A DNA stretch of 22,690 bases from a virus (IMGVR_UViG_3300028906_000002); one strand, 5' to 3'; shown: positions 1 through 19,251, counted from the first letter of the stretch. Numbers and translations are program-made. Notes: generated by a model not told the origin, from the letters alone.

Positions 1-987
1 CCGCAGTCTATGCCGGTTGAGGGCGGAACACTCATGTTCAATGCTGCCGGGCAGAAGGTCTTCATTCCGGAACCGAAGATGGGAACGGTAAAAATTGGTG
101 GTGCGGAGATTCCGACTGTCAGCCATTTCGATCCGGCTTCGGGACGATGGAATACACAAACTCTCGCACCAGGTGGTGGCGTGCAGACCGGGGCACCATC
201 ATCGGACGGCGGCGGTCCGATGCCTCATCCGGCTCAGGCTCAAGGTGGAATAGCCCAACCTGATCTTTCGTCTATCGGAGGCATTCAGGCCGCAGAGGTA
301 GCGCAAGCTGGTGCCAAGAAACAGGCTGAGGAACAGGGCACCACAACCGCCAAAACATTCAATACGATTTACACGGGTGTTACCGGAGACGCCTTTAACG
401 CTGCACGTCAAGCTCCGATCGTCGATGTTTTACAAAGAATCGCTCCAGCCGCACTAACCGGAGCGGGTTCAGATGCAATGCTTGCGTTGAATCGCGTCGC
501 GTCTCAGTTAGGCATTAATCCTGAGGGAGCCGCACCGCGCGAACTTTTCAACCAACTATCTGCTAAGGTTTTGGCCGATCAATTCGCCAATATTCGCAAT
601 ATGAGTACGGAGGAAGGGTCTCCAGGGGGCCGCATTTTCAAATCGATGCTGGATTTGGAAGAAAAGGCAAATATCACTCCTGATGATAGCCTTGCAGGCG
701 TTCAGGCCAAATTGGCTTTCATTAAAAATTCAGGCGATATGTTGCAGCGTTGGGGCAACATGGCAGATGACTACGTGAAAGAGCATGGTGCACTTGATCC
801 AGGATTTATGAAAGCTTTACGTAGCGATATAGCTTCTCAGAAATTCGACAATATCATGCCTGAGGCGGATGCTAGTTCTCCGACCGGAATGAAGACTGCG
901 CCTACCGCGCCAGTATCCAAAGTGATCAACGGCAAGACCTACTATCAAATCAACGGCAAAGTTTACGATAATCCCGAGGGAAAGTAG
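1..987 (+). CDS. Internal virion / DNA ejection-type protein (5' truncated)
   Basis: Frame is open from base 1 (CCG CAG TCT ATG), so the gene starts before the window. Ala/Gly/Gln-rich helical protein ending KVINGKTYYQINGKVY, a C-terminal style common in podovirus internal virion proteins; lies upstream of the tail fibres. Confidence 0.55.
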   Translation, partial: PQSMPVEGGTLMFNAAGQKVFIPEPKMGTVKIGGAEIPTVSHFDPASGRWNTQTLAPGGGVQTGAPSSDGGGPMPHPAQAQGGIAQPDLSSIGGIQAAEVAQAGAKKQAEEQGTTTAKTFNTIYTGVTGDAFNAARQAPIVDVLQRIAPAALTGAGSDAMLALNRVASQLGINPEGAAPRELFNQLSAKVLADQFANIRNMSTEEGSPGGRIFKSMLDLEEKANITPDDSLAGVQAKLAFIKNSGDMLQRWGNMADDYVKEHGALDPGFMKALRSDIASQKFDNIMPEADASSPTGMKTAPTAPVSKVINGKTYYQINGKVYDNPEGK

Positions 988-2778
988 TTGGCCGAAATTA
1001 CGGACCCAGATGTTCTGAAGCAATTTGAGGTGCAGCCTGCCGCAGCGCCTAGTGGGCTCGTGACCGATCCGGAGATTCTGAAGCATTTTGATACTGGGGA
1101 ATCAGATAAGCCATCCGTCGCGGCCGATGTCGCAAAGAGCATTGGCTCTGGGGCGGTTAGCGGCCCCGTCATAGCCGCCGGTACCCCCGGTGACCTCTCC
1201 AATCTGCTCGCTAAGGGCAGCAAGGTTGCGGGAGATTATATCGCCGGAAAGATGGGCTTCGGGCCGAGTCCAGAGATTGCTCCACCGATTCTGCCTACTA
1301 GCGAAGGAATTAAACAGTCCATTGGTAATGAGAATCCCGTTGGACAAGCTATAAATTATGATCCGCAGACGAATTGGGGAAAGCTTGCAAAATCTGGCGC
1401 TGAAACCGCCGCTAATCCGTTTTCCTATCTTGGTCCTGGCGGTGTACTAGCCAAAGGCGCGACGGCTGCTGCTAGTGGAGTCGGATCGGAGGCTGCAACC
1501 GAGGCGACAGAGAACGCTAAGCCTTGGGTGAAAGCTGTTGCGCCATTGGTTGGAGCCATCGCGGGCGGTCACGTCACGAGCCTACCGCGCGTCATCACGC
1601 CAAATGTCATCTCGAATGAGCGGCAGGCAATGATTGATGTCCTGCAACATGAGGGTGTGCCGCTGACGGCTGGAGACCGCACCGGAAATCTCACCATGAA
1701 GGCAGCAGAATCGGAATTGAGCCCCGGGGTAAACGAAGCTCAACGGGATGCCTTCCACCAAGCCGCCTTTAACCGTGTCGGGGAAACGATCGGCGATCGA
1801 CCAATTCAAGGTGCCAACGGTGCCGTTGATACTATGATGAGGCGAGTGGGCCAGCGTTTTGATGATTTAGCATCTCGCAATGATGTAAATTCAGACCCGC
1901 AATTGCGCGCTGAATTGGCTGATATTTACAGAACATATAATGATGTTCCAGGATTGTATCCGCAGGAAACGGTGAATAGTATCAACGGAAGTCTTGGTCG
2001 GGTCCAATCTGCATTTCAACAAGGCGGAACTCTGAGTGGTCCAGAGTATCTAACATTGCGGTCTAATCTCAGGGCCGCAGCAATGGGAGCAACTGACCCA
2101 CAGAGAGCGGAAGGTCTTCACGGCGTAACAAATGCTCTTGATGATGCGATGGATCGATCCATAAACGCGCGTTCAACACGTACTATTACGACAACAAACC
2201 CCGTAACAGGGACGGTTAATCAGACAACTATACAAGTTCCTAATCCTGACGCTGGCGCATTCGCGGATGCACGACGGGATTATCGTAATGCTCTGGTGCT
2301 TCAGCGCTGGGCAGGATCAGCCAACATGACGCCATCAACCTTGGCTCAATCGGCAAAGGCGGTTTACGGCAAGAACCAATACGTTCGCGGAATGGATGAT
2401 TTCTCCGATCTGGCTGAATCTGGCCGTAACGTCATGAAGCAATTTCAGGATAGTGGAACCGCGCGACGATTACAGATCGAAGGTATTCTGAAAGCTCTCG
2501 GTGGCGTTGCTGGCTTTGGTGCTGGGGCTGCCCATGGCGGAACGGCAGGGGCTGCGGAAGGTGGCGTCGCAGGATTGCTGCTCGGAGAATTGGCTGGTCC
2601 TATGATTGCGCGTCCGGCTGCCCGTGCTGCGCTAATGAATCCGGTCACACAGGCCGCACTCGCCAACCAACTTGCTCCCTATCGGTTTGGAACGTCACCG
2701 AGTACGATAGCGCTTATGAATGCGATTAGGGGCGGACAGACTCCGCAGATTCCTGCGCAGAACGGACAGCGGCAATGA
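988..2778 (+). CDS. Internal virion / DNA ejection-type protein, 596 aa
   Basis: TTG start directly after the previous TAG, GAGGG at 976-980. N-terminal duplicated motif ITDPDVLKQF / VTDPEILKHF; Gly/Ala-rich hydrophobic segments (GGVAGFGAGAAHGG); position typical of P22/T7-like ejection genes. Function inferred from composition and synteny. Confidence 0.55.
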   Translation: MAEITDPDVLKQFEVQPAAAPSGLVTDPEILKHFDTGESDKPSVAADVAKSIGSGAVSGPVIAAGTPGDLSNLLAKGSKVAGDYIAGKMGFGPSPEIAPPILPTSEGIKQSIGNENPVGQAINYDPQTNWGKLAKSGAETAANPFSYLGPGGVLAKGATAAASGVGSEAATEATENAKPWVKAVAPLVGAIAGGHVTSLPRVITPNVISNERQAMIDVLQHEGVPLTAGDRTGNLTMKAAESELSPGVNEAQRDAFHQAAFNRVGETIGDRPIQGANGAVDTMMRRVGQRFDDLASRNDVNSDPQLRAELADIYRTYNDVPGLYPQETVNSINGSLGRVQSAFQQGGTLSGPEYLTLRSNLRAAAMGATDPQRAEGLHGVTNALDDAMDRSINARSTRTITTTNPVTGTVNQTTIQVPNPDAGAFADARRDYRNALVLQRWAGSANMTPSTLAQSAKAVYGKNQYVRGMDDFSDLAESGRNVMKQFQDSGTARRLQIEGILKALGGVAGFGAGAAHGGTAGAAEGGVAGLLLGELAGPMIARPAARAALMNPVTQAALANQLAPYRFGTSPSTIALMNAIRGGQTPQIPAQNGQRQ

Positions 2779-2780
2779 GA

Positions 2781-3365
2781 CTATTTCAGATGCTTCCAAC
2801 GTTCCCGAGATCGAATTCGGCTTATGGCAGGTTGATGCACGCCAAAACGCTTAGCAAGCGCTGTGCTTGTTTCTTGAGAGTTTCGTATTTCATAGATTTC
2901 TTCATCAGTAAACTTAGCATGTCCGTTTCTCATGCCACGAGCATGTCGATCTTTTTCTATACAATCTTCAATATTTCTAGCATTAGTCCCGGGGAAAAGG
3001 TGCAATGGATTTACGCATGGAGGATTATCGCATGTGTGACAAATATCCATCCCTTTTGGAATTGGCCCTTTGTGAACTTGGTAAGAAATTCGGTGGGCTC
3101 TGTGGTGTTGAGAATAGCCCTTTCCCTTAAATTCTGTCGTGATAATCCCGTAGTTATGTGTTCCGCCCTGTCGCGCTCCCGGCCATTCCATACATCCTTT
3201 TTCTGTAGGAACAATCCTGTTGAAAAAGTCCATGAATCGATCTTCAAGTGGTCGTTTCTTTGTCGCATGTTGCAGAAGTGTTCCGAGGCGACGATGACGA
3301 TAATAGCATGGCTTACAAAAACCACGTGCGGCCACGGCTGGCGCGTTACAGTCACGACAAGGCAT
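2781..3365 (-). CDS. HNH homing endonuclease (HNH_3 type) with N-terminal Cys cluster and C-terminal HTH
   Basis: DICHTCDNPPCVNPLHLFPGTNARN motif, N-terminal CRDC...FCKPC, C-terminal AKFTDEEIYEIR...LAKRFGVHQPAISRIR. Start placed at ATG 3365 (AGGA + 5 nt); ORF track start is 3398. Confidence 0.9.
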   Translation of the reverse strand: MPCRDCNAPAVAARGFCKPCYYRHRRLGTLLQHATKKRPLEDRFMDFFNRIVPTEKGCMEWPGARQGGTHNYGIITTEFKGKGYSQHHRAHRISYQVHKGPIPKGMDICHTCDNPPCVNPLHLFPGTNARNIEDCIEKDRHARGMRNGHAKFTDEEIYEIRNSQETSTALAKRFGVHQPAISRIRSRERWKHLK

Positions 3366-3431
3366 GATGTTCCTATCCATAAAACGTGCAAGGAACATAT
3401 AAGACTTTTTGATGTAAAATCAAGTAAAATG

Positions 3432-3444
3432 GGAGGGTGTCACG
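3432..3444 (+). promoter_or_regulatory. Shine-Dalgarno GGAGG + 5 nt + putative ACG start codon
   Basis: GGAGG 3432-3436, spacer GTGTC, ACG 3442-3444 followed by P-R-G-S-N-G-V-Y-S-L-P; in-frame TAA at 3415-3417. Confidence 0.7.
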
Positions 3445-4344
3445 CCTAGAGGTTCGAACGGCGTTTACAGCTTGCCAGTTGCCGCGTTTGTTCCCGGCGG
3501 ACTGATTAAGTCCTCCGATAATAATACAATCAACAACGACCTAGCCACTGCGCTAACACAATCGCTAGCGACCACTGGCGTATCGACAATGACGGGGCAA
3601 CTTGTTGGGTCCGCTGGCCTCGTTACGGCACCAGGATACACGTTCAGCGGCGCGCCAAAGACGGGATTTTTCCTTGCTGGCGCAAATCAAATCGGATGGG
3701 CGGCGAATGGTGTCCAAGGCGCAACGTTCAATGCTGATACTTCCATCACATTTGCAGGAACAATTTCGGCAGCAAAAGGAACGATTCCAGTTGGTGCCGT
3801 GATGGATTATGCTGGCGGCGCTGCTTCTATCCCGTTGCCACCTGGTTGGTTGCTATGCTTTGGGCAGCAAGTATCGACGACAACCTATGCAGCATTGTTT
3901 GCTGTGCTTGGAAACCTGTACGGAGCAGGTGTCGGAACATTCGGCATTCCTGATTATCGTGGTCGAGCCACATACGGCCAAGACAATATGGGTGGATCGG
4001 CGGCGAACCGGATCACGATTGCTGGTCTTAACTTCGATGGTACTATACTTGGGAATGTAGGTGGAAATCAAAACCACACGCTTACAACTGCTGAATTAGC
4101 CGCTCATAATCATGGGATTACTGATCCGGGTCATAATCATACCACATCAACTCCTGTTCCTGGAGGTGGCTCTTCCTTCGAAACATGGAACACAAGCAGC
4201 CTTGCAACAGGCGCTACTTTGGGAGGACCAAATACAGGTAGTTCAACGACAGGAATCACCATCAACAATGCGGGCAGCGGAAATGCTCATACGATTCTGA
4301 GTCCAGCCATCATTACCAACAAAATTATTTTTGCAGGGGTTTAG
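3442..4344 (+). CDS. Tail fibre protein with phage tail collar domain, about 300 aa
   Basis: Collar motif IPVGAVMDYAG...GWLLCFGQQVSTTTYAALFAVLG..YGAG..TFGIPDYRGR; HxH motifs AHNH and GHNH; N-terminal tail anchor (M)PRGSNGVYSLP...DLATALTQS. ORF track starts at TTG 3472, which has no SD; ACG 3442 proposed. Confidence 0.9.
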   Translation, partial: TPRGSNGVYSLPVAAFVPGGLIKSSDNNTINNDLATALTQSLATTGVSTMTGQLVGSAGLVTAPGYTFSGAPKTGFFLAGANQIGWAANGVQGATFNADTSITFAGTISAAKGTIPVGAVMDYAGGAASIPLPPGWLLCFGQQVSTTTYAALFAVLGNLYGAGVGTFGIPDYRGRATYGQDNMGGSAANRITIAGLNFDGTILGNVGGNQNHTLTTAELAAHNHGITDPGHNHTTSTPVPGGGSSFETWNTSSLATGATLGGPNTGSSTTGITINNAGSGNAHTILSPAIITNKIIFAGV

Positions 4345-4348
4345 TTAT

Positions 4349-4483
4349 ATGCCATTCAACTGGACTCCAGAGAAATATAAACAATCACGTGAATGGCATG
4401 CAAATTATTTACGTCAGTGGAATGGGCCAGAGATAATCTGCTCAAGAGCAATAAGACATAGGAGGCGGATATTCCATTCGTAG
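4349..4483 (+). CDS. Small 44-aa ORF MPFNWTPEKYKQSREWHANYLRQWN..., possible endonuclease remnant or overlapping uORF
   Basis: Translated by hand: ATG 4349 to TAG 4481-4483, AGGGG upstream; overlaps the SD and start of the next gene in another frame. Confidence 0.3.
   Translation: MPFNWTPEKYKQSREWHANYLRQWNGPEIICSRAIRHRRRIFHS
4461..4473 (+). promoter_or_regulatory. Shine-Dalgarno GGAGG + 5 nt + putative ATT start codon
   Basis: GGAGG 4461-4465, spacer CGGAT, ATT 4471-4473; in-frame TAG at 4459-4461 caps the ORF, and no in-frame ATG/GTG/TTG occurs until 4534. Confidence 0.7.
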
Positions 4484-5622
4484 GAAATCAATACATCCCG
4501 GTCGCAGGTGCCATCACAGCCGCCCCAGGTCAGGTGCTGCAGTCGGCAATTTGGGATAATATCAACACAGATATTGCGGCGGCTCTAACGCAATTAGCAA
4601 CGCAAGCCAATACGACGCCAACATGGTCGAATATTCTGGCCCCGAACGGCGGATTTGCGATTTGGCAGCGCGGGGCGGGAGCGAATGCGAGTTTTTCGGT
4701 TAACGCCTCGACGACGCAATACACGGCGGATCGTTGGTACATCATCACGGGGGCAAATCAGGCTACCGTTGTAGCGGCGGCAACCGGATTGACTGGTGCT
4801 GCTCCACCAGCACATGCCTGCAAGATTACGCGGACCGCAGCGCAAACCGGAATTACGGCTTACACATTCGGCTATCCATTGACTGCCGATGAAGTCTACC
4901 GCCTGAGAGGACAACAGGTATCATTCAGTGGTGCGGCCAAATCTGGGGCGAATTGGTCGCCGGCACTCGGCGCTTTCACCATCAGCCTTTTGGTCGGAAC
5001 CGGAACGGCTCAGAAGGCCGGCGTGGCTGGCGCTAACTTCTCTGGTTTGTCTACCCCGCTCACAATCACAACCGATCTTGCGGCAGGCGCGACCAATACT
5101 TCGATCACAGGGACAAGCGCGGCAATAGTTCCAATCACGTCAACACAAGGCGAAATTCAGGTAACGTGGACTCCAGTAGGAACGGCTGGAACCGATGACA
5201 GCCTGACGCTCGATCAGTTCTGCCTCGTGGCAGGCGCGATCGTGCAATCATTCGAGGATTTGCCGTTCGATACTTGCTTGCGGGAATGCAAAAAGTTTTT
5301 CCGAAAATCGTTCAACTACAATGTTGCACCGGCTCAGAATGCGGGGAATGGGGGTGCCATTGGCGCATGGTCTCAAGCAGTAGCTAGACTTGGAATATAT
5401 GTTAATCTGGAACCTATCGAAATGTATGTAACGGCTGCGGTCACAACATATCAACCTAATGGCGCATCAGCCAATTGGTCCAATGCAACTAGTGGCGCAA
5501 GTTCAGCACCGACACTTGATGGTACAGTTTCGTCAGGCAAAGGGTTTACGATATTGACGGCAACAGTTAGCAATGTAGATAATTACCTGTTCATCCACTA
5601 CACGGCTGACGCGCCTTTGTAG
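4471..5622 (+). CDS. Second tail fibre / receptor-binding protein with carbohydrate-binding-like domain, about 383 aa
   Basis: N-terminal anchor (M)PFVGNQYIPVAGA...DIAAALTQ is homologous to the first fibre; NGGFAIWQRG...YTADRW and FEDLPFDTCLRECKKFFRKS motifs are typical of phage tail proteins; Thr/Ala/Gly-rich. ORF track start is GTG 4534. Confidence 0.8.
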   Translation: MPFVGNQYIPVAGAITAAPGQVLQSAIWDNINTDIAAALTQLATQANTTPTWSNILAPNGGFAIWQRGAGANASFSVNASTTQYTADRWYIITGANQATVVAAATGLTGAAPPAHACKITRTAAQTGITAYTFGYPLTADEVYRLRGQQVSFSGAAKSGANWSPALGAFTISLLVGTGTAQKAGVAGANFSGLSTPLTITTDLAAGATNTSITGTSAAIVPITSTQGEIQVTWTPVGTAGTDDSLTLDQFCLVAGAIVQSFEDLPFDTCLRECKKFFRKSFNYNVAPAQNAGNGGAIGAWSQAVARLGIYVNLEPIEMYVTAAVTTYQPNGASANWSNATSGASSAPTLDGTVSSGKGFTILTATVSNVDNYLFIHYTADAPL

Positions 5623-5624
5623 AT

Positions 5625-5915
5625 TCAGATCATCTCGTGCGCGATGCTGGCCCATTCCAGCCACCCAGCAAGGTTGATCTGGCTATAATATTCTGAGCGG
5701 CGATCGATGCCTTCATGAGGACAATAGATTTCCTCTGCTAGAAGAGCATCTACCATGAAGTCTTCGAACATGGGCGAATAGGCTTGATTACCGGAGATTT
5801 TCAAAGCATCCCATTTCGCGACGATATTTTCGACTGCATTGGGCGTAAAAACGCAGTCTTTCGGATGATTGCGGATAGTGGTTCTGGCAATCTCAGCGAC
5901 GTAGGGATGATTCAT
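5625..5915 (-). CDS. Hypothetical protein, 96 aa
   Basis: ATGA overlap with the methyltransferase stop at 5912-5915; last gene of the leftward operon. Confidence 0.65.
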   Translation of the reverse strand: MNHPYVAEIARTTIRNHPKDCVFTPNAVENIVAKWDALKISGNQAYSPMFEDFMVDALLAEEIYCPHEGIDRRSEYYSQINLAGWLEWASIAHEMI

Positions 5916-6625
5916 GCTTGCGCCTTTTCGAAAAGCCAAAGCGTAACGTCATCGAGCCCAGTCGTTCGCCTCCACGCGAACTGACATGCAAGGATTTTGA
6001 GCGTCGGAAACTGCGCCAACCAAGCTTCACCCCAGTCCCGACGCCAGAGCATCCCGGATTGCCCGCGATACGTTATTTCCTCCGGAACATGGTTGAAATA
6101 CTCGATCGACAGTATCCAGCGCTTGGACACGCGGTAAATCTCCGACAGTGCGCGAGGCAAATCAGCCGGCGAAACGTGAATCAGCACCCCGGACGTAAAC
6201 ACCATATCGGCAGCATCGTCCGCATAGGGCAATTGGGATAGATCGCCTGGCAGTACGGTCGCAACATCGGCCATAGCCTTGCGGGCAGCCTCGTTCGGAT
6301 CGCAGGACATGAGCTTGATTGGCTGGCGTGACCTCTCATAGATCATATCGATGGCGCGGAGGTTATCCCCGCATCCACCGCCAACCTCAATCACCGATGC
6401 CGGGAAGGGCTGTGCAGACGGACTAGCCTTGTTTGCATTCTCCATGGCTTGGAAAATGTCGCCGAATAGACGGGAGCGGTTCTTGATGGATTCCCAATTG
6501 CTGGCGCATCGCTGCTGATAGGCGTCGCCGAACGCCCCAGACCATTCATCAATGGGAACGCCGCCGACGTACATTTTGACTTTCGTATCCGGAGTAACTA
6601 TCGAGGCCTTAGTGCCGCGTGGCAT
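5912..6625 (-). CDS. Pseudaminic acid biosynthesis-associated SAM methyltransferase
   Basis: WSGAFGDAYQQR, SAM motif VIEVGGGCGDNL, MVFTSGVLIHV, IEYFNHVPEEITYRGQSGMLWRRDWG match the Pse-associated methylase pattern; context supports it. Confidence 0.85.
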   Translation of the reverse strand: MPRGTKASIVTPDTKVKMYVGGVPIDEWSGAFGDAYQQRCASNWESIKNRSRLFGDIFQAMENANKASPSAQPFPASVIEVGGGCGDNLRAIDMIYERSRQPIKLMSCDPNEAARKAMADVATVLPGDLSQLPYADDAADMVFTSGVLIHVSPADLPRALSEIYRVSKRWILSIEYFNHVPEEITYRGQSGMLWRRDWGEAWLAQFPTLKILACQFAWRRTTGLDDVTLWLFEKAQA

Positions 6626-7268
6626 TGTTCGGAATCTCCATGAGTTCGGCCTTGGCCAGCATCTTCTCTAATCGCTCAATATCCGAAGGTACGTCGACGC
6701 AAAGGTTCAATCCGGAACGATCAACCTTTTGCTGAACATTTGCACGCCTAATGCCTCGTGTTTTTTGCATCCAGATTGTAGTATGCTCACGATAATGGGG
6801 TGCCTTGGCCTTGATATGCGCGGCCTCAAGACAATCATACGAGAATGCCTCGACATCGAAGCCCTTCGGATATGTCCGTTTCGGAAACACGTTGGAGCAA
6901 TAGTCCAGATTTTCGGCCTTGAGTAGCGCTAGCACCTCGCCAGCTACGACCGGATCAACAAATGGGCTGTCGCCTGTAATCCTGACGATAGTATCAACAC
7001 CATACATCGTGGCCGCGTCGAAATAGCGGCCTAAAACATCGTCCTCTGAGCCGCTGGCGCATGCTATTCCGAGTGAGTTGCAAAGCTGATAGATCGGGAT
7101 TGAGGAATCATTGGCTGGGAAGGCTACAACGATGGTGTCCACGAATGGTACAAGCTTTGCCCGCTCTATGACGCGCTCAAGCACTGGCTTGCCGGCGAGC
7201 GGCATCAGGACTTTGCCGGGCAATCGTTTGCTCGTCATTCTCGCCTGGATAATTATGCCGGTTGTGAT
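6609..7268 (-). CDS. spsF: Acylneuraminate cytidylyltransferase family (SpsF/PseF-like), about 219 aa
   Basis: IIQARMTSKRLPGKVL, GSEDDVLGRY, VRITGDSPFVDP, YPKGFDVE, REHTT, LCVDVPSD motifs. Proposed ATC start at 7268 (GGAGG + 5 nt, TGATC overlap); ORF track ATG is 7316. Confidence 0.92.
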   Translation of the reverse strand: MTTGIIIQARMTSKRLPGKVLMPLAGKPVLERVIERAKLVPFVDTIVVAFPANDSSIPIYQLCNSLGIACASGSEDDVLGRYFDAATMYGVDTIVRITGDSPFVDPVVAGEVLALLKAENLDYCSNVFPKRTYPKGFDVEAFSYDCLEAAHIKAKAPHYREHTTIWMQKTRGIRRANVQQKVDRSGLNLCVDVPSDIERLEKMLAKAELMEIPNNATRH

Positions 7269-7278
7269 CAGAACCTCC
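7266..7278 (-). promoter_or_regulatory. Shine-Dalgarno GGAGG + 5 nt + putative ATC start overlapping the upstream TGA
   Basis: Minus strand GGAGG-TTCTG-ATC-ACA-ACC-GGC-ATA-ATT-ATC-CAG-GCG-AGA-ATG; TGA of the upstream gene overlaps as TGATC. Confidence 0.6.
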
Positions 7279-7444
7279 CCTTGAATGGCATCGTCGGTAT
7301 CGGTCTGTTTAGCCATTCCTCGCGTTCTATCTTCTGTCGCTCTATGATGCGCCGTGCTCTATCTCGTGTGCTGTGATCTTCTTGGCCAAGTCGATAGCCC
7401 CATGTCTGGACGAGATGATCAATTTCTTTTTCAATATCGTTCAT
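7268..7444 (-). CDS. Hypothetical phage protein, 58 aa (MNDIEKEI...)
   Basis: TGATG overlap at 7442-7446 with the upstream gene; ORF track start is 7504. Confidence 0.6.
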   Translation of the reverse strand: MNDIEKEIDHLVQTWGYRLGQEDHSTRDRARRIIERQKIEREEWLNRPIPTMPFKGRF

Positions 7445-7680
7445 CACGTCACCGCATATGCAAATGGACAGTTCGGCGCATGCAATATCGCGAACTTTCC
7501 GCACGTGCAGCGCGTTTCATTCGGGTGCAGCATTCGATCAAGCTTATCCAATTCAGCCTGTAGATTGAACGGACATGGCTTCTCAACCAGCGCTCCGAGC
7601 GGAGTATCGTGAGCATCCATGCCAGTTAGGCGAGTAATTGTTTCGGCGGCAGCATCCGTTACTAAGAGATATTTTTTCAT
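7444..7680 (-). CDS. Hypothetical phage protein, 78 aa, C-terminal CTC...H...CP
   Basis: ATGA overlap at 7677-7680. Confidence 0.65.
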   Translation of the reverse strand: MKKYLLVTDAAAETITRLTGMDAHDTPLGALVEKPCPFNLQAELDKLDRMLHPNETRCTCGKFAILHAPNCPFAYAVT

Positions 7681-8126
7681 CCGTTATCTCCCATGATCTT
7701 GTGACGAAGCGCTTTTGCATCCCAAAGCGCGTTATGCTGGATCGCCCCAGGTAGCGTCGTCGGATAAGCGTCAACTCGGTGCAATTCGAATCGTAAGAAT
7801 CGGATATTGACCATCTGACCGGGACCAACAACGATCGCTTTGCAGAAATAGGCGATATCGTCGGGCCAATCAGCGATGATCTCCGGACAGCCATCGCCAT
7901 CCAGAAATGCAGCGATCATGTTGCAGAAATTTTTGGTCGCACTTACGAATGGTCTTGCTCCAGGGCATTTAATGATAGGAATGACGTTCTCAGCTATCCA
8001 TGGCAGCGGATTTGTTACAAAAGGAGTTGCCATGTAGAGTTCGCGACCATCCTCGCAAACTAGCGCGAGGCTGATCAGGTCGCCGCCCATGCCGTTGAAC
8101 TCGGTGTCAAGAAAATATCGCGTCAT
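7677..8126 (-). CDS. DEDD 3'-5' exoribonuclease (Rv2179c/DUF5051-like), 149 aa
   Basis: RYFLDTEF...LISLALV and HNALWDAK motifs; ATGA overlap at 8123-8126. Confidence 0.8.
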   Translation of the reverse strand: MTRYFLDTEFNGMGGDLISLALVCEDGRELYMATPFVTNPLPWIAENVIPIIKCPGARPFVSATKNFCNMIAAFLDGDGCPEIIADWPDDIAYFCKAIVVGPGQMVNIRFLRFELHRVDAYPTTLPGAIQHNALWDAKALRHKIMGDNG

Positions 8127-8392
8127 CCAATATCTGCCTTTCCGGTCAAAACAAGCCATGCTTCAGAAATCCGATAACGATAGACCGCAATTCGATCCAT
8201 AAACTGCTTCCATCGCGAATGATAAATGGGATCATATGGCCGATCGGAATATAGGCTAGCGTTCAAGTTGCGAGCCATCTGCTCGACCGATTCATCCATT
8301 CTTTTTTGCAATAAATCAGTCATCTCATGCGAAACGTTCATTGGTATCCACCAATCAGCACCGCTCCGATCGATCTTGTAATCCTCGCTCAT
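8123..8392 (-). CDS. Hypothetical phage protein, 89 aa
   Basis: ATGA overlaps at both ends. Confidence 0.65.
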   Translation of the reverse strand: MSEDYKIDRSGADWWIPMNVSHEMTDLLQKRMDESVEQMARNLNASLYSDRPYDPIYHSRWKQFMDRIAVYRYRISEAWLVLTGKADIG

Positions 8393-8712
8393 GCTTCAAA
8401 CTTCCTCTGCACGTTGCACAAAACCCATCCCCCGTTCGGTCCTTTGATGACCCACGGCAGACCGCAGACATGGCACGGCGCGACCTTGCCACCATATTCC
8501 GGAACCGGTGCATCGCCGATCACTTCGAACATCTTGGATTCCATCACGGAACCGGGAACGACATCGGCTAGCAGTTTGTAGAGGCCATGGTGATTCACAC
8601 ACTTCACGATATCGCCAGCACGACCGGCGGAAACGTATTTCACTGGTTTAACTCCAATGTCCTCAAGCTGCTGCTCGCGGACTCGATTTATATACTCGTC
8701 CCAGGCTATCAT
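8389..8712 (-). CDS. Hypothetical phage protein, 107 aa, C-terminal CHVC...C
   Basis: ATGA overlap with the hisF-like stop at 8709-8712; ORF track start is 8760. Confidence 0.65.
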   Translation of the reverse strand: MIAWDEYINRVREQQLEDIGVKPVKYVSAGRAGDIVKCVNHHGLYKLLADVVPGSVMESKMFEVIGDAPVPEYGGKVAPCHVCGLPWVIKGPNGGWVLCNVQRKFEA

Positions 8713-9425
8713 GTTTCGATCCTCACAGGAACGCCGTGAACTGAAAGATACTCCTTGCAATGTTGAGGAGTGGTGTTTGTGAAAAGGAACATAGACGAAG
8801 CCGCGACCGCATGCGCGCCAGCCTGTATTGCCATCAGCATGTCAGTTGGTGTTCTGCATCCACCATTGGCGATAACCGGGATGTTGACTGCGCCGCATAC
8901 TTTCGTGAGGGTGTTAATTTCATATCCGCACTGCACGCCATCACCATCCATGTTGGTCAAGATGATCTCGCCAGCCCCAGCCTGCTCTACATTTCTTGCA
9001 AGTTCCGGAATTATGTCGCGGAGTCTCAATCCATAGTCCATTGCGATAGTGATGCATTGCGCCCCGAACTTCTTCGAAGCCTCTGATATGAAAGCTCGCG
9101 ATGCTCCAGTGCGCAAAACAACCTTATCGGCTCCAGCATTGAGCAGCCCACGGATATCATCCAGAGATCGGATACCACCGCCGACTGTCACTGGGCAGAA
9201 CAACTTGGACGTGAATTGCTTGATCTCCTCGAAACGTGGTCCACGGCCATGCGGTGTCGCATCGATATCCAGCAAGATCAGCTCGTCACAGGTACGGTTC
9301 TCATAGAGCAGAGCGGCGGACATCAACGAGCCGACGAAACGGCCGGGGCGCTGGAAGGCGATCGGCTTAACGAGGCCTCTGGTGTCCCAGAGCAAAATGG
9401 GTATGATTCTTGTTTTCAACGGCAT
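8709..9425 (-). CDS. hisF: HisF-like cyclase subunit (WbuZ-type partner of N-acetyl sugar amidotransferase)
   Basis: TRIIPILL, DELILLDID, CPVTVGGGIRS, AGADKV, FGAQCITIAMD, GAGEIILTNMDGDG, PVIANGG, AVAASSMF: HisA/HisF TIM barrel; located next to WbuX, with no his operon. Confidence 0.92.
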   Translation of the reverse strand: MPLKTRIIPILLWDTRGLVKPIAFQRPGRFVGSLMSAALLYENRTCDELILLDIDATPHGRGPRFEEIKQFTSKLFCPVTVGGGIRSLDDIRGLLNAGADKVVLRTGASRAFISEASKKFGAQCITIAMDYGLRLRDIIPELARNVEQAGAGEIILTNMDGDGVQCGYEINTLTKVCGAVNIPVIANGGCRTPTDMLMAIQAGAHAVAASSMFLFTNTTPQHCKEYLSVHGVPVRIET

Positions 9426-9426
9426 A

Positions 9427-9846
9427 TTAAAACAACTTCACCAATATTCGGCGCCACCATGGCTGTCGTCGATTCCAAGTAGACTTGATGAGAAGTGACG
9501 TTAATAAAGGAGAACGATACCAGGCTTTCCGATATTGTGCCCGCTTCTCGATAATCTGCCAATTCGAGCGGAGAGCTACGCGTTGATTATGGATGCGCTT
9601 GTCAAGCTTTAGGCGCTCCTGTTTTAATTGTTCGACTTTGGCGGTCAGAGCTTTGCATGTATGCGCAGCAGATTCCATCAATTGGAGCGCTCGGTCGCAA
9701 CCGGATTCATTGATGGCAGATACTTCTCTCAGGTCTCCGATTGCCCGATAAGAACGTGCTAGAACATCCTGCCACCAAGCATTAATTCCAGCTTGGTGAC
9801 GGGCCTTATTGATATCGGACAAAAGTTCATCCAAATCCGGTGTCAC
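9427..9846 (-). CDS. Hypothetical coiled-coil phage protein, 139 aa
   Basis: GTGA overlap at 9843-9846; heptad-like segment LTAKVEQLKQERLKLDKRI. Confidence 0.65.
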   Translation of the reverse strand: MTPDLDELLSDINKARHQAGINAWWQDVLARSYRAIGDLREVSAINESGCDRALQLMESAAHTCKALTAKVEQLKQERLKLDKRIHNQRVALRSNWQIIEKRAQYRKAWYRSPLLTSLLIKSTWNRRQPWWRRILVKLF

Positions 9847-10280
9847 TTTGGTCTCTTGATATAGCTTATCTGCAGAAGCTCAAATCCAAGCGTTTCGAAC
9901 ACGTCAATTGATCGCGCATTTAGCGGATTGATGTTGGCTAGGAAGCATTCGCCGGGGTGCCGATTCATCAGAAGGCATATTGCAGTCTTGCCGTAGCCTT
10001 TGCCATGGTATTCCTTTGCGATGAAGATGCCGATCTCGTTCTGCTTCGATAGGTAGATCGCGCCGATCGGTCCCATTTCTACGGTCCCCCATTCATCGAA
10101 AATGACAAACCATTCCCGGTACGGGCGCGAATCCACGAAGGCGCAGTGTTGCTCAAATGAGGGCATCTCGCGGTGGCTTATGTTCTGGTGCGGCTCGCGC
10201 TCTTTCAGCATCTCATATAGGAACTTCGTCGCTACCCGCGTCTCTGCTATCTCGGTGTAGACATCGATAAGTTTGATCAC
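9843..10280 (-). CDS. GNAT N-acetyltransferase (PseH-like by context), 145 aa
   Basis: EIGIFIAKEYHGKGYGK acetyl-CoA motif A and ANINPLNARSIDVFETLGF motif B. GTG start at 10280 with AAAGG upstream; ORF track start is 10349. Confidence 0.85.
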   Translation of the reverse strand: MIKLIDVYTEIAETRVATKFLYEMLKEREPHQNISHREMPSFEQHCAFVDSRPYREWFVIFDEWGTVEMGPIGAIYLSKQNEIGIFIAKEYHGKGYGKTAICLLMNRHPGECFLANINPLNARSIDVFETLGFELLQISYIKRPK

Positions 10281-10291
10281 GGTTGCGCCTT

Positions 10292-10498
10292 TTATTTTGA
10301 GGTACAAAAAGCTCGAAGCTTGCGATGATAACCATATTCCCTCTCCCAACCTTGGGTTTGATCTTGTATCTCTTTGATTGCACCAGCGCAGCGTTCCATC
10401 GTCGAATACTCTTGTGTAGTAATAGCAACGCCTTCACTATCGCCAAAACTTCCAGCGGAAACCCAAGACACTATGATAATCATAATAGCTGTATTCAT
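10292..10498 (-). CDS. Small exported/membrane phage protein, 68 aa, with Cys pair
   Basis: Hydrophobic N-terminus MNTAIMIIIVSWVSAG; C...C pattern; fills the gap between wbuX and the GNAT gene. Confidence 0.65.
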   Translation of the reverse strand: MNTAIMIIIVSWVSAGSFGDSEGVAITTQEYSTMERCAGAIKEIQDQTQGWEREYGYHRKLRAFCTSK

Positions 10499-10501
10499 AT
10501 C

Positions 10502-11638
10502 TCAATCTTTCTCATTGACGGGACTGAACAGCGGTTGAATATCGCCCCTCACATGCGAGCCCGCGAATAGATCGCGGTTAGTGAAGGTGTCGCAGCCCTC
10601 AAGGAACTCATGCACGGTCATGCCTAGAGGTTTCAGGACTTCTCTGAGCGGCACGTCAAGATAAGTGGCGGGGAACATGGCGTCACGTTCCGCAGCGATC
10701 GGAGCAGCGTCTCTCCGGCTGATAAGCCCTCGACGAATGTGGTTAGAGAGAAGATCAGTGGCCCGCCCATAGCCATATTTGATGTAACGGAGCCAGTCGT
10801 GGGCCCCGACCTGGATATTGTCTAAATTTTCATATCCCCAGTAAGAACCCTCAATATGCTTTGGCCAGATTTCAAATCCATGCTGTACAGCTAGTTCGGC
10901 ATTCGCCAATCCGGACCAAGGGAAAAACTGGCCCAAGAAGATTCCCTGCGGCGGCTCGTTTCCTAACTCCGGATACTGATACAACTCACCGATAGGACCA
11001 AGTGTAGCCTCCACATCGGCGACGCGGAGACCGTTCAATCCGCCGAATTCGTTTAACCAGTCCTGCGTGAGCTTCGTCGCTAATTGGGCCTCCTTCGGTC
11101 CTCCATATTCCGCTTGTGGATTCTCTGCCCAAATAATCAGCGGAATCTTCATCATCGACGCAACACGGACCGGGATTGAAAATATAGTGATATGCTCTGC
11201 CCATGAAATATCTCCAATGGTCTCCAGAGTGAAACGGTTGATCTTACGCCTGATTACGGGATTCGTCTTTACCTCAATGTGGTCGCAGCCAAGTTTGCTG
11301 ATGTTGTCTAAGTTGTGCCGGCCAATTGCGGAGAGATGATCCGTCTCGGCAGTGACGGCTAGGACGCGCAAGCCGTAGTCCAATGCTTTTATCACTTGGT
11401 AATGACTGTCTTTTCCGCCCGATACTGGCACGACGCAATCATAGGCCGCGCCATTGTGCCGAGCCTCGCGCCGCGTTTCCACCACCAGATGCTGAAATTG
11501 CTTCTCTCTATCGGCCCAATCGATCAGAGAGCGGGCATCGAATGCCTGGCAGGCTGAGCATAGGCCATCCTCATTCCATGTTAGATCAGGTTTGGAACCG
11601 AGTGGATAAAGACATTTGCAACAATAAATTCGGCTCAT
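10502..11638 (-). CDS. wbuX: N-acetyl sugar amidotransferase (WbuX/PseA family), 378 aa
   Basis: N-terminal CCKCLYP...KPDL..NEDGLCSAC, YDCVVPVSGGKDS PP-loop, GDISWAEH, WAENPQAEYGG, HDWLRYIKYGYGRATD, IRRGLISR. Confidence 0.92.
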   Translation of the reverse strand: MSRIYCCKCLYPLGSKPDLTWNEDGLCSACQAFDARSLIDWADREKQFQHLVVETRREARHNGAAYDCVVPVSGGKDSHYQVIKALDYGLRVLAVTAETDHLSAIGRHNLDNISKLGCDHIEVKTNPVIRRKINRFTLETIGDISWAEHITIFSIPVRVASMMKIPLIIWAENPQAEYGGPKEAQLATKLTQDWLNEFGGLNGLRVADVEATLGPIGELYQYPELGNEPPQGIFLGQFFPWSGLANAELAVQHGFEIWPKHIEGSYWGYENLDNIQVGAHDWLRYIKYGYGRATDLLSNHIRRGLISRRDAAPIAAERDAMFPATYLDVPLREVLKPLGMTVHEFLEGCDTFTNRDLFAGSHVRGDIQPLFSPVNEKD

Positions 11639-12441
11639 GGACGCGGTACCGTGAATCCGGCTGCGTTCTTATGGCCACCTCCACCGAAGCGCCGAGCTAT
11701 CTCACTCACATCGAAGTCGCCACGAGAACGAAGCGACCAAATCACGTCAGTTCCAGTTTCGGCATACATAGCCGCGAACGGATAACCTTCCGCAGCCAGT
11801 TCGCCGCAGACTTCGGATGACATGAACAGAGAAGCATTGACGACCGGGACCTTGTGACCCGCGATATATCGCAAGAAAGCGTGCTTCTTGGTTTGTTCGA
11901 CTAAGATGCGGTAATAGCGCTGGATGGCGTGCCCTTCCTGAACGAGATAGCCAACGCCCCTGGTCACCAGCCTATCCCACGTGGTGAAATCTTGCGGATA
12001 CGAGCGTAGCGCGGCCGTGAACTCATCGACGAAGGCTAGCTTCTTGGTCCACAGATCGCGGTCCTGCAGATAAAGGAAAAACTCAGGGACTTCCTCGTCT
12101 GGATGGAAAAATTCCCATGCCATAACCGCACCGCTGCGGCTCATATCAAAATGGACATCAACGTTTCGACATTCATCCGATAAGCCAGCGAGATCGGCCT
12201 CAGCCGTCTTGTGGTGGTCAAGAACCAAGATCGATTTTGCTTTTGCAGCAAGTTCAATCATGACGTGACATTTGTATGAGAAATCTACGATCGCAACATC
12301 AAGGCCTGTTACATCTGGAGGCTCTTTGCCATAGACGCCAGCGTGATAGGTCACGCAATCGCCATCACGTTTCCACACGGCGAACGCTGCTCCAAAACCA
12401 TCGTCACATGATCCATGGTAAATGCAAAGGTCTGGCGTCAT
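11635..12441 (-). CDS. DHH/DHHA1 phosphoesterase, 268 aa
   Basis: IYHGSCDDGFGAA, IVDFS, LDHHKT, QDRDLW, WSLRS, GGGHKNAAGF; ATGA overlaps at both ends. Confidence 0.9.
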   Translation of the reverse strand: MTPDLCIYHGSCDDGFGAAFAVWKRDGDCVTYHAGVYGKEPPDVTGLDVAIVDFSYKCHVMIELAAKAKSILVLDHHKTAEADLAGLSDECRNVDVHFDMSRSGAVMAWEFFHPDEEVPEFFLYLQDRDLWTKKLAFVDEFTAALRSYPQDFTTWDRLVTRGVGYLVQEGHAIQRYYRILVEQTKKHAFLRYIAGHKVPVVNASLFMSSEVCGELAAEGYPFAAMYAETGTDVIWSLRSRGDFDVSEIARRFGGGGHKNAAGFTVPRP

Positions 12442-13091
12442 TTCATATTCCTTATCGATTTGACATATTCCCGAAATTCATCCGGCGTCGATGAAAACGC
12501 CTCGTCGTGGCACGGCACATCCGGCAACCGCAGATGCCGCTCAACCATTGGACATCGATAGCTGACAAACCGCATATTTGCCGAATGATCGGATACCCCG
12601 AGCGCGCCGTCTTCCTTGTCGTCATATTCCGTTGCGCGTAGAATCGTCACGCCATCAACGGGACGCACCGATATGATGATTGGCTTTCCGGTCGCGACTA
12701 CGGCGTTAATCAAGTCGCCGTCCAGCATCTCGAATGCGCTTATCTTGTAGCGGGGGCAGTTGAGCATTTCGAGGAAGGCAACATCATCGGGGGAAAAGAC
12801 CGACGAGAACCAAGGAATATCAACCGATTTAGCATGCTCAATCATCGGCTCAAACCACTCGCGCGGTGTGTATGTTTCGCGGTACAGGTCAAGTAGAGAG
12901 CGTCCGTGGAAATCCTTGGCGAGTGCTACGACACGAGGATTCTTGGCGCGTTTGGCAGCAAGACGTTCTGGCATGAACGCCTGCCACTTGATTGCATCTG
13001 CGCCAGAGGATTTAGCCTCCGAGATCAAGCGCAGAGCATTGAGATATGAGCCGCCGTGAGTTGAGCCGATCTCTGCTACGATTTCTGTCAT
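12438..13091 (-). CDS. pseI: N-acetylneuraminate synthase family, PseI-like, short form (217 aa)
   Basis: VAEIGSTHGG, GADAIKWQ, LYRETYTPREW, YKISAFE, TGKPIIIS, GVSDHS, VERH; no C-terminal SAF/antifreeze-like domain. ATGA overlap at 13088-13091. Confidence 0.85.
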   Translation of the reverse strand: MTEIVAEIGSTHGGSYLNALRLISEAKSSGADAIKWQAFMPERLAAKRAKNPRVVALAKDFHGRSLLDLYRETYTPREWFEPMIEHAKSVDIPWFSSVFSPDDVAFLEMLNCPRYKISAFEMLDGDLINAVVATGKPIIISVRPVDGVTILRATEYDDKEDGALGVSDHSANMRFVSYRCPMVERHLRLPDVPCHDEAFSSTPDEFREYVKSIRNMK

Positions 13092-13750
13092 CGAAAGCAC
13101 CTAAATGTACTCAAATCAGGATAATCGTCCCAAGGAAGATCAGCATTGTGCTTCGGCAGCAAACGAAGTTTGGTAAGCCCGTGCGCCGCCAATTCGGGGG
13201 AAAGATATGCGTGCCAGCCGACCATATCGATGTTGTCGTTCTTGGGTGCGATTCCTTCAGTTCTCCCGTCGAAGCGGGCCTTCCTTAGCCACTCGTCGGC
13301 ATATGGATTATCGTGGAGTATGGCTCCAGCCTGAGAAATGCTGAGAATCTTGCCCCAGTGAAACGAAACGCATTGCATTTGTCCCGGCACAAACATTCCG
13401 GATGTAAAGCGGCGCGCAAAATCCCAGACCGGGGTCGGCTTGAGCTGATATCCGCCGACCCAACTCTCGTCACGGAACGCAACCTTGCATCCGGCATGTA
13501 TGATAGATTGCGGGACGCTTATGTACGTATATCGTGGTATCTCCACGATCATAGGATCAAATTCGATCTGGATGCCATCCAGCGTGAGACCAGCGGGCTT
13601 GCGCATAATGACCTGATCGCAACACGCGACTGCTAGCAATATCGCCATCGTGCATGATGTGGTAGACACAGCGTACCGAGCGCCCGTGTAATCGCACAGC
13701 GCGGCCTCAAACTGGCGTACAACATCGAAAGGATTGAGGGAGACAGTCAC
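13088..13750 (-). CDS. pseC: DegT/DnrJ/EryC1/StrS PLP aminotransferase, PseC-like by context, short form (220 aa)
   Basis: FEAALCDYTGARYAVSTTSCTMAILLA, WDFA (PLP Asp), CVSFHWGKIL (PLP Lys), AGAIL, GWHAYLS. GTG start at 13750 overlaps the pseB TGA; ORF track start is 13840. The pseC label rests on adjacency to pseB. Confidence 0.8.
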   Translation of the reverse strand: MTVSLNPFDVVRQFEAALCDYTGARYAVSTTSCTMAILLAVACCDQVIMRKPAGLTLDGIQIEFDPMIVEIPRYTYISVPQSIIHAGCKVAFRDESWVGGYQLKPTPVWDFARRFTSGMFVPGQMQCVSFHWGKILSISQAGAILHDNPYADEWLRKARFDGRTEGIAPKNDNIDMVGWHAYLSPELAAHGLTKLRLLPKHNADLPWDDYPDLSTFRCFR

Positions 13751-14601
13751 CGCAGCATCTCTCGCAACTCGGCAACCGACATCCGCCGTGCTTTGTCGCT
13801 CGAATTGCCTTCTGCCATCGATTCGTGCTGCTTTTCCCATTTTGGGAGCCCGATGATTCGCATCTTCGCCCCCATAGCCTCAGCGAGGTCGCCTAGGCGA
13901 TAGGCCGGCAGAGTAGGGATTACGATCTCGCCTCCCCGCATCGTCTCAGCCGTATTCAGGACCAGATCGACGGCCTCTTCTATTGTCATGAAGAAGCGCG
14001 TGCAGTCCGGATCGGTAACCGGAACAGTATCCGCACCTTCGGCCAGCATTTTGCGCCAAGTCGGAACAACCGAACCAGTAGATGAAAAAATATTTCCGTA
14101 GCGGCAAACGACGAAGATCGGGCCGCGTTTTCCACGCATATTATTTGCAGCCAGAAATAATGATTCAGCAAATGCCTTGCTAGTTCCGTAGGGGGAAACC
14201 GGCTGAAAAACCTTGTCGGTTGATAACGCAACAACTTTGGACACATGCGCATCATGCGCAGCCTCAATGACATTACTCGCCCCGCCAATGTTCGTTTTTG
14301 AAATTTCAATCGGATTGTAGAAAGCTGTCTCGATTCGTTTCAAGGCAGCGGCATGAAATACTACCTCCACGTCTTCCATAGCTCGCCGCAGTCTATCCCT
14401 ATCTCTTACGTCACCGATGAACATCCGAAGGCGTTCATGCGGATCAAGCGACGTAAGTTCACGCGCCATCTCGGCTTGGCGGTGCTCTCCCCTGGAATAG
14501 ACAACGATGCGGTGTGGGTTGTCCTGTTTCATGGTGAGCAAGCGCTTGACGAGCGCAGTCCCAAAAAATCCTGTCGCTCCCGTCACCAGCACACTTTTCA
14601 T
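13747..14601 (-). CDS. pseB: UDP-N-acetylglucosamine 4,6-dehydratase (PseB/FlaA1-like), 284 aa
   Basis: VLVTGATGFFG, RMFIGDVRD, FHAAALK, YNP.E..KTNI.GA, ALSTDK, YGTSK, AANN, RYGN, TRFFMT, GGEI, EKQHE. Confidence 0.92.
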   Translation of the reverse strand: MKSVLVTGATGFFGTALVKRLLTMKQDNPHRIVVYSRGEHRQAEMARELTSLDPHERLRMFIGDVRDRDRLRRAMEDVEVVFHAAALKRIETAFYNPIEISKTNIGGASNVIEAAHDAHVSKVVALSTDKVFQPVSPYGTSKAFAESLFLAANNMRGKRGPIFVVCRYGNIFSSTGSVVPTWRKMLAEGADTVPVTDPDCTRFFMTIEEAVDLVLNTAETMRGGEIVIPTLPAYRLGDLAEAMGAKMRIIGLPKWEKQHESMAEGNSSDKARRMSVAELREMLR

Positions 14602-18871: not shown

Positions 18872-18888
18872 TCTCATAGGAGGGTTCC

Positions 18889-19251
18889 GTGACCATTAGC
18901 AAATCTGCCGCAGATGGGCTGTTACGAGCAGTTGCGTTTCTCCACCCTGGATATGCACCTCTGATTGATTTCCTGGAGGCTCATGAGGACGCATTGGTTG
19001 CGGCTGGTCCTGTCATCAATGAAGCGGCCAAGGAAGGTCCTGGTGCCCTTGCTGCCGCTGAGACGGCCGCTCCCGGCCTTACCCAAGCAATCAAGCATTT
19101 CATCGAATCCTCGCCAGTTGCGACTTATCAGCCAAAATTGGCGACAATGCATGCTGAGAACATTACTCGGCGGATTGTCGGCGCCCCTGTATTGACCGAG
19201 GACCAAGAACACGATTTTCTGAGCGAGGACAGCCGCAGCGGGAGCGGCTAG
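18889..19251 (+). CDS. Hypothetical protein, 120 aa
   Basis: GGAGG 18879-18883 + 5 nt + GTG. Confidence 0.75.
   Translation: MTISKSAADGLLRAVAFLHPGYAPLIDFLEAHEDALVAAGPVINEAAKEGPGALAAAETAAPGLTQAIKHFIESSPVATYQPKLATMHAENITRRIVGAPVLTEDQEHDFLSEDSRSGSG

Follow-up and report, generated by a model that had tools for sequence, protein, structure and literature searches.

A stretch of 22,690 nucleotides (nt) from the virus IMGVR_UViG_3300028906_000002, referred to here at its full length as the window, belongs to an uncultured soil phage of about 86 kb. It encodes two tail-fibre proteins (fibre 1 and fibre 2) and, on the minus strand, a cytidine monophosphate (CMP)-sugar cytidylyltransferase. Comparison with related phages indicates that these three genes are probably translated from the near-cognate start codons ACG, ATT and ATC, respectively, with a strong Shine-Dalgarno (SD) sequence compensating for the weak codon. 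A first-pass annotation of the window had proposed three near-cognate starts, each 5 nt after GGAGG, and all three are present, at ACG 3442, ATT 4471 and ATC 7268-7266. Position 7278, given there as the end of the region, belongs to the SD sequence, and the ATC codon itself lies at 7268-7266 on the minus strand. That the genes begin at these codons is well supported for the fibres, by N-terminal homology and by the relatives, and reasonably so for the cytidylyltransferase, where an in-frame ATG at 7316 remains a rival (Table 1).

The same phage has been recovered in four metagenome assemblies from different samples, with lengths of 86.5-86.7 kb, and syntenic relatives of 82-93 kb are frequent among soil metagenomes. 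DNA was compared with that of ten syntenic genomes, across which gene order is kept, and of several more distant ones. Among GenBank phages, megablast gave no match to the window. A tblastn search of fibre 1 against cultured phages returned matches to the C-terminal collar domain only and found no relative of the N-terminus, so there is no annotated cultured reference for it. The nearest homologue of fibre 1 is P0002, at 85% identity.

Table 1. Features of the window that bear on the three proposed starts (CDS, coding sequence; aa, amino acids)
Feature	Position	Strand	Remarks
HNH homing endonuclease gene, free-standing, directly upstream of fibre 1	2781..3398	-	Pfam HNH_3 E=6.8e-9; minus-strand call in other assemblies
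SD GGGAGGG of fibre 1 (core GGAGG 3432-3436)	3431..3437	+	5 nt before ACG; duplex -10.7 kcal/mol
ACG, proposed fibre 1 start	3442..3444	+	aligned with Met1 of MPRNSSGTYSLP homologues
Fibre 1 CDS, 300 aa, phage tail collar domain	3442..4344	+	PF07484 E=2.4e-16; PHROG tail proteins
44-codon remnant of Endonuclease-VII-type homing gene	4349..4483	+	tblastn 46% identity over 46 aa to intact L104 gene
SD GGAGG of fibre 2	4461..4465	+	5 nt before ATT; duplex -10.2 kcal/mol
ATT, proposed fibre 2 start	4471..4473	+	aligned with Met1 of MPF[ST]GN... homologues
Fibre 2 CDS, 383 aa	4471..5622	+	PHROG 4492 tail fibre E=1.6e-16
CMP-sugar cytidylyltransferase CDS, 219 aa if ATC start	6609..7268	-	CTP_transf_3 (PF02348) E=1.7e-24; PDB 6oew E=1e-28
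ATC, proposed cytidylyltransferase start	7266..7268	-	aligned with start codons of relatives
SD GGAGG (within GGGGAGG) of cytidylyltransferase	7274..7278	-	5 nt before ATC; duplex -11.9 kcal/mol, strongest in window
In-frame ATG 7316, rival start, +16 residues	7314..7316	-	GAGG with 1-nt spacer, -5.9 kcal/mol
Gene B, 58 aa	7268..7444	-	stop TGA (7270-7268) overlaps ATC by one base (TGATC); called in other assemblies
GGAGG + 5 nt + GTG start of 120-aa gene	18879..18891	+	duplex -10.7 kcal/mol

The evidence for the fibres begins with their N-termini. MPRNSSGTYSLP[IV]AAF is the N-terminus of fibre 1 homologues as distant as about 45% identity; its counterpart in the window is (ACG)PRGSNGVYSLPVAAF, in which ACG takes the place of the M. 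The collar domain further along the protein passes the Pfam gathering score (59.8 bits against a cutoff of 24). Homologues of fibre 2 begin MPF[ST]GNxY, and the window reads (ATT)PFVGNQY. The Met1 of MPF[ST]GN aligns on the ATT in L104, L003, L106, L107, L108, L110, L093, L085, L103 and L087. In the fibre 1 frame a TAA lies 8 codons upstream of ACG and the first NTG codon (N, any base) is codon 11; in the fibre 2 frame a TAG lies 3 codons upstream, at 4459-4461, and the first NTG is codon 22. Since no NTG codon stands between the stop and the proposed start in either frame, only a near-cognate codon can yield the family N-terminus. ACG 3442 is thus very likely, judged by these alignments, to be the start of fibre 1, and ATT 4471 can be proposed for fibre 2 with the same high confidence.

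Databases carry both proteins in truncated form, fibre 1 as a 251-aa call from ATG 3589 and fibre 2 as a 362-aa call from GTG 4534. Where DNA behind such truncated fibre 1 calls could be read, none of the nine had ATG at the Met1 position.

Selection on the fibre 1 head supplies a second line of evidence. Proportions of synonymous (pS) and nonsynonymous (pN) differences were computed for fibre 1. Among the genomes with a near-cognate codon, codons 2-10, which precede the first NTG, give pS of 0.5-1.0 against pN of 0.15-0.5, and codons 2-30 give 0.6-0.9 against 0.1-0.5. Between the window and L105, for instance, the head differs by the synonymous changes AGA to CGC (Arg) and AGC to TCT (Ser). 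The stretch between the near-cognate codon and the first NTG therefore evolves as coding sequence and appears to be translated. Synonymous sites in fibre 1 are near saturation; the SD, the 5-nt spacer and the non-ATG codon are nonetheless retained.

Gene callers picked canonical starts in all four assemblies, and these starts could be the real ones (TTG 3472 or ATG 3589 for fibre 1, GTG 4534 for fibre 2, ATG 7316 for the enzyme), with the near-cognate codons being ordinary upstream sequence. For the fibres, however, such starts would cut 10-49 residues (fibre 1) and 21 residues (fibre 2) from the most conserved part of the family, and the region lost is one in which pS lies far above pN in genomes that have no canonical Met1. 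The SD energies of the downstream candidates are merely -2.7 kcal/mol (TTG 3472), -1.5 kcal/mol (ATG 3589) and -3.2 kcal/mol (GTG 4534). TTG 3472 is also not conserved as a start, being TTA or CTT in L105 and L108. Together with the enzyme, discussed below, this makes the use of canonical starts quite improbable.

The relatives show which codons occupy the same positions (Table 2). The first-pass annotation had suggested aligning related phage genomes at these positions; near-cognate codons recur at fibre 1 (ACG, ATT), fibre 2 (ATT) and the enzyme (ATT), and the other genomes have ATG or GTG. Beyond the genomes of Table 2, ATT stands at the fibre 1 start in L086, L001 and L007. Distant phages have GTG or TTG there (L009, L016, L084, L014) or ATG (eleven loci). 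The ATT of fibre 2 is likewise preceded by GGAGG at 5 nt in L105 and L111. The near-cognate design is thus repeated in relatives for all three genes, which suggests that it is real and maintained.

Table 2. Codon at the proposed start position of each gene in the window and its relatives
Genome	Fibre 1	Fibre 2	Enzyme
Window	ACG	ATT	ATC
L104	ACG	ATG	ATG
L003 (=L083)	ACG	ATG	ATG
L106	ACG	ATG	GTG
L105	ATT	ATT	GTG
L108	ATT	ATG	ATT
L109	ATT	no homologue found	GTG
L111	ATT	ATT	outside covered region
L110	TCG	ATG	GTG
L107	CTG (TTG four codons upstream)	ATG	ATG

Frequency can be gauged with less bias from how many close homologues are cut short at an internal NTG in public gene calls. By this measure the share is about 39/64 (~60%) for fibre 1, about 11-12/40 (~30%) for fibre 2 and about 7-8/60 (~12%) for the enzyme.

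Neighbouring genes served as controls, and all have ATG: NeuB in 8/8 genomes, DHHA1 in 5/5 and p378 in 9/9. Apparent ATT starts of p378 in L108 and L110 were rejected as an artefact of extrapolation, the true ATG lying two codons downstream. The upstream 596-aa gene starts with TTG or GTG. Its TTG at 988 in the window had been listed by the first-pass annotation, and the relatives agree, with TTG in L104 and L110 and GTG in L111. A tblastn search of all stop-to-stop open reading frames (ORFs) against the relatives was made for further start-less genes; within 1-14,600, the part that the relatives' flanks reach, only the three reported genes stood out. That scan is noisy, as close relatives align in every frame.

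Errors of sequencing or assembly could in principle produce odd codons, as could inactivating mutations in a decaying element. The material is metagenomic in origin, and one relative of 4.8x coverage (L110) has the odd TCG. But the four assemblies from different samples give identical truncated calls of 251, 362 and 235 aa in a comparison of gene calls, and relatives that have diverged at most synonymous sites carry these codons too. The start codon and the SD change together. A decayed prophage, which had been named as a finding that would overturn the near-cognate starts, was ruled out: the ORFs are full-length, pS is far above pN and gene order is conserved in ten relatives. Error or decay is therefore scarcely credible as the source of the codons.

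The strength of the SD sequence follows the start codon. The three near-cognate sites and GTG 18889 have the four strongest pairings with the anti-SD (-10.2 to -11.9 kcal/mol) among the approximately 38 gene starts of the window, in which every ATG gene has -7.3 kcal/mol or weaker. At orthologous positions of the three families, the median is -10.7 kcal/mol for 12 near-cognate contexts, -5.95 kcal/mol for 22 ATG contexts and -6.1 kcal/mol for 6 GTG or TTG contexts. The near-cognate and ATG energies differ with p=2e-5 (Mann-Whitney, phylogeny ignored), and loci added later conform to the pattern. Taken gene by gene, the change from a weakly paired ATG to a near-cognate codon 5 nt after GGAGG is complete. 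No special RNA structure was found at the starts (z = -0.87, 0.02, +1.69, -0.59). A phage initiator tRNA with altered anticodon was looked for in the window, which has no tRNA gene.

The motif itself is a different matter. GGAGG occurs at 26 sites in the window, both strands together. Followed after 5 nt by one of five near-cognate codons, it is expected about twice by chance and observed four times, the fourth being ACG 6073 on the minus strand, inside a methyltransferase gene. The caution that the pattern also arises by chance was thus apt, and the motif alone is not beyond chance. Its position does exceed chance: three of the four sites head long ORFs, on the exact codon aligned with the orthologue's Met1. 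The case rests on homology. The GTG at 18889 does have the spacing of the near-cognate sites, as first noted.

For the cytidylyltransferase, the family assignment is clear from Pfam, where CTP_transf_3 reaches 87.3 bits and the gathering cutoff is 22.6; the best solved relative is PDB 6oew. Homologues start [MV]TTG[IV]IxxARMTS, with Met1 at the ATC position in 73/120 (the Ala of 'ARM' being residue 8 or 9). With an ATC start, the window enzyme begins 4 residues before the beta-1 strand, as solved KdsB chains do. The relative L108, which has ATT at this position, shares the context of the window (GGGAGGTTCTG-ATY); an in-frame stop lies 13 codons upstream and no canonical codon precedes the Met of 'ARM'. 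An enzyme begun at that Met would lack the first strand and the conserved Arg. L108 is decisive for a near-cognate start of the enzyme.

The canonical rival here is ATG 7316, which is in frame, has GAGG nearby and corresponds to the 235-aa call of the other assemblies. Its 16-residue extension is not conserved: it is absent from all relatives, and stops close it in L104, L105 and L108. Its SD spacer is 1 nt, and a start there would overlap gene B by 49 nt. Taken together, the alignments make ATC 7268 a likely start, at a confidence somewhat below that for the fibres.

Gene B ends on the proposed start itself. The gene is conserved in L108, with a TGATT junction, and a related C-terminus occurs in L107, with a TGATG junction. 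Alternatively, most initiation at the near-cognate codons could come not from de novo recruitment but from ribosomes that have just finished an overlapping ORF upstream (gene B, or the 44-codon remnant before fibre 2). The overlap of stop and start is kept across genomes (TGATG in L107, TGATC in the window, TGATT in L108). In E. coli reporters, about half of the initiations at overlapping or near stop-start junctions, the infC-type AUU included, come from re-initiation (PMC3592434). For fibre 2, the short ORF of the remnant retains the ancestral fibre 2 ribosome-binding site; its ATG stands at the ancestral fibre 2 start position and its TAG falls 10 nt after ATT 4471. Re-initiation there presumes, though, that this candidate ORF is translated. 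In L104, L105, L106, L003, L109 and L110, the TAG of the upstream gene forms part of the fibre 1 SD (TAGGAGG). The geometry differs from gene to gene: at the enzyme a co-directional ORF, gene B, ends on the start; at fibre 1 of the window none does, as the upstream gene is on the opposite strand; and at fibre 2 the remnant may play this part. Fibre 1 has no co-directional upstream gene in the window, where the minus-strand HNH gene precedes it, or in L108, where another minus-strand gene does; both nonetheless have a near-cognate codon 5 nt after GGAGG. With that neighbour on the opposite strand, the ACG of the window is not coupled to a co-directional gene and so would be reached de novo. The strong SD found at every near-cognate site also favours a role for de novo recruitment. 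Re-initiation as the main route is therefore possible, though somewhat unlikely.

Fibre 1 could also lack a start of its own and be made by read-through or recoding as a fusion with the upstream protein. In the same genomes that have TAGGAGG, an upstream gene of about 570-600 aa is in frame with fibre 1, and a single TAG three codons before the fibre 1 start separates the two. In the window, by contrast, the in-frame TAA ends no gene, and the neighbouring gene upstream is encoded on the opposite strand; L108 and L111 likewise differ from the single-TAG, same-frame arrangement. The upstream gene and fibre 1 share a frame simply because TAGGAGG and a 5-nt spacer add up to 12 nt, and the ATG homologues of fibre 1 begin precisely at this residue. 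Read-through is accordingly very improbable.

Two candidates around the fibre 1 start were rejected. A plus-strand ORF at 2775..3449 is a shadow ORF of the minus-strand HNH gene and not a gene. An overlap constraint that would force ACG was also dismissed: this ORF is only a shadow, and a change of ACG to ATG would be synonymous in its frame. A 6-codon mini-ORF (ATG GGA GGG TGT CAC GCC TAG) spans the SD and ACG at 3429-3449; it lacks an SD, does not occur in L003 or L106, and is probably meaningless.

Initiation from near-cognate codons, the reading preferred here, may proceed as follows. An initiator fMet-tRNA would read ACG, ATT and ATC, and a full GGAGG at a fixed spacing of 5 nt would place the weak codon in the ribosomal P site. 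The strong SD would offset the weak codon and give a modest output. Re-initiation by ribosomes terminating on an overlapping upstream ORF would probably contribute for the cytidylyltransferase and possibly for fibre 2. 'ATG with a weak SD' and 'near-cognate codon 5 nt after GGAGG' would then be interchangeable designs for the same genes, both maintained in evolution within the clade. Since the ATG orthologues carry weak SDs, the two designs may yield a similar, modest output. The pairing of a weak codon with the strongest SD fits such interchangeable designs at least as well as deliberate down-tuning. A low copy number would suit both the fibres and the enzyme; the low stoichiometry and the tie to initiation factor 3 suggested in the first-pass annotation are speculative.

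Several points weigh against this reading. The relatives whose DNA was compared were picked from truncated gene calls, which biases the frequency of near-cognate codons upward. The SD comparison is pseudo-replicated, contexts such as AAATAGGAGGCTAC being common to L105, L110 and L001; independent origins of the near-cognate contexts number perhaps three or four. In the enzyme, unlike the fibres, a canonical codon, ATG 7316, lies upstream of the proposed start in an open frame; in L108 that frame is closed. The TCG of L110 (9854-9856) is two mismatches from ATG, and stands behind TAGGAGG and 5 nt with a stop three codons upstream. It is either a low-coverage error or a sign that the SD tolerates worse codons and that codon identity matters less than assumed. 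Finally, efficiencies measured in E. coli may not transfer, as the phage host possibly differs from E. coli. There, AUU, AUC, AUA and CUG initiate at about 1-2% of AUG and ACG at 0.1-1%, and an N-terminal Met has been confirmed for initiation at ACG and AUC (bioRxiv 10.1101/063800); in another system AUU was measured 6-8-fold below AUG (PMC3592434).

Conserved near-cognate starts are known from a few bacterial genes. The E. coli genes infC, which encodes initiation factor 3 (IF3), and pcnB (AUU) resemble the phage genes in that a conserved near-cognate start, read by the initiator tRNA, limits translation; infC has the further feature of lying 3 nt after an upstream stop (10.1101/063800, PMC3592434). 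Each of these is a lone regulatory gene of a cell, with an IF3 feedback loop demonstrated for infC. The phage, unlike these, has three such genes within 4 kb, two of them for virion proteins, includes ACG and has no evident feedback logic.

An architecture like GGAGG with a 5-nt spacer occurs in ccpN (AUA), cvfC1 (AUU) and infC (AUA) of S. aureus and B. subtilis, where an extended and well-spaced SD aids a weak codon and is conserved between species; in S. aureus the conserved AUU and AUA starts all have extended SDs (PMC13009471). Those genes belong to Firmicutes hosts and were studied by ribosome profiling and reporters, whereas the phage starts are known here from comparison alone, with ACG added. 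The sigR gene of Streptomyces has a GTC start repressed by IF3 and is similar in that a natural non-NTG start serves as a control point of translation; it differs in its codon class and in having its IF3 dependence shown experimentally (PMC5472188).

Viruses of eukaryotes offer a parallel of another kind. For VP2 of adeno-associated virus and C' of Sendai virus, initiation at a weak ACG holds a minor virion protein to a low copy number relative to a major one. Their mechanism is eukaryotic scanning with leaky initiation, and the analogy is one of purpose only.

A weak start offset by a strong SD is thus a known kind of control (infC, pcnB, ccpN, sigR), met here in a new place and at an unusual density. 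The literature searched yielded no described natural ACG start in phages or bacteria and no natural ATT start in phages. Distinctive of the present case are the recurrence in phage tail-fibre genes, the conservation of ACG across diverged genomes and the weak-start state being the majority in the close fibre 1 subfamily.

The surroundings of the three genes show further variation among relatives. The 126-nt spacer between the fibre genes is occupied by the endonuclease remnant, and L104 has an intact 196-aa Endonuclease_7 gene in the same place (10869-11459). With the HNH gene before fibre 1, this suggests that homing endonuclease genes insert preferentially at the tail-fibre junctions. Directly after fibre 2 lies a slot in which several relatives have Pfam matches to Acb3 (anti-CBASS); the window has only a 96-aa gene there (5625-5915). 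Genes with matches to Acb3 or Tad3 (anti-CBASS or anti-Thoeris) lie at 13178-13873 in L106, 12047-12901 in L107, 12321-13040 in L108, and 11957-12841 and 15789-16208 in L110, where the Tad3 match falls within the sugar cluster.

Upstream of fibre 1, the TTG of the 596-aa gene directly follows the TAG of the preceding gene (GTAG-TTG, 985-990), and no Pfam family was found for the 596-aa protein. In some relatives a large protein upstream of fibre 1 has a match to ART-PolyVal (ADP-ribosyltransferase) in Pfam; in L106 its gene (8219-9961) lies directly upstream.

The cytidylyltransferase heads a minus-strand set of nonulosonic-acid genes (pseudaminic-acid-type), with PseB-, DegT-, NeuB-, GNAT- and HisF-like genes and a methyltransferase. 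Two products of the set cover their Pfam profiles only in part: the match of the NeuB-like protein (217-220 aa) is confined to positions 1-120 of 241, and that of the DegT-like protein (~220 aa) to positions 25-92 of 360; their genes lie at 12438-13091 and 13088-13750 on the minus strand. All relatives keep these short forms, which may represent compact, split or strongly diverged enzymes. The PseB-like dehydratase (13747-14601, minus strand) has 284 aa in the window, L109 and L110 and 339 aa in L105 (19596-20615), and differs C-terminally.

Improving annotation. Standard gene finders miss near-cognate starts, and true N-termini are cut from the stored proteins. For the fibres, the missing part is the most conserved segment and presumably the one that attaches to the virion. 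Such truncation affects the prediction of receptor-binding proteins, structure prediction and phage engineering.

Comparing initiation signals. The three gene families allow a clean comparison, controlled by orthologues, in which start codon and SD strength shift together.

A possible dosage control. A speculative and rather unlikely extension is that GGAGG with a 5-nt spacer and a near-cognate codon acts as an evolvable dosage dial for receptor-binding proteins and virion glycosylation. If so, changes of one base among ATG, ATT, ATC and ACG, accompanied by corresponding changes in the SD, would adjust the copy number or timing of the fibres. The genes would also respond to the initiation fidelity of the infected cell and might, for example, rise late in infection as IF3 becomes limiting. 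On this view ACG would be a conserved natural start codon of the bacterial type.

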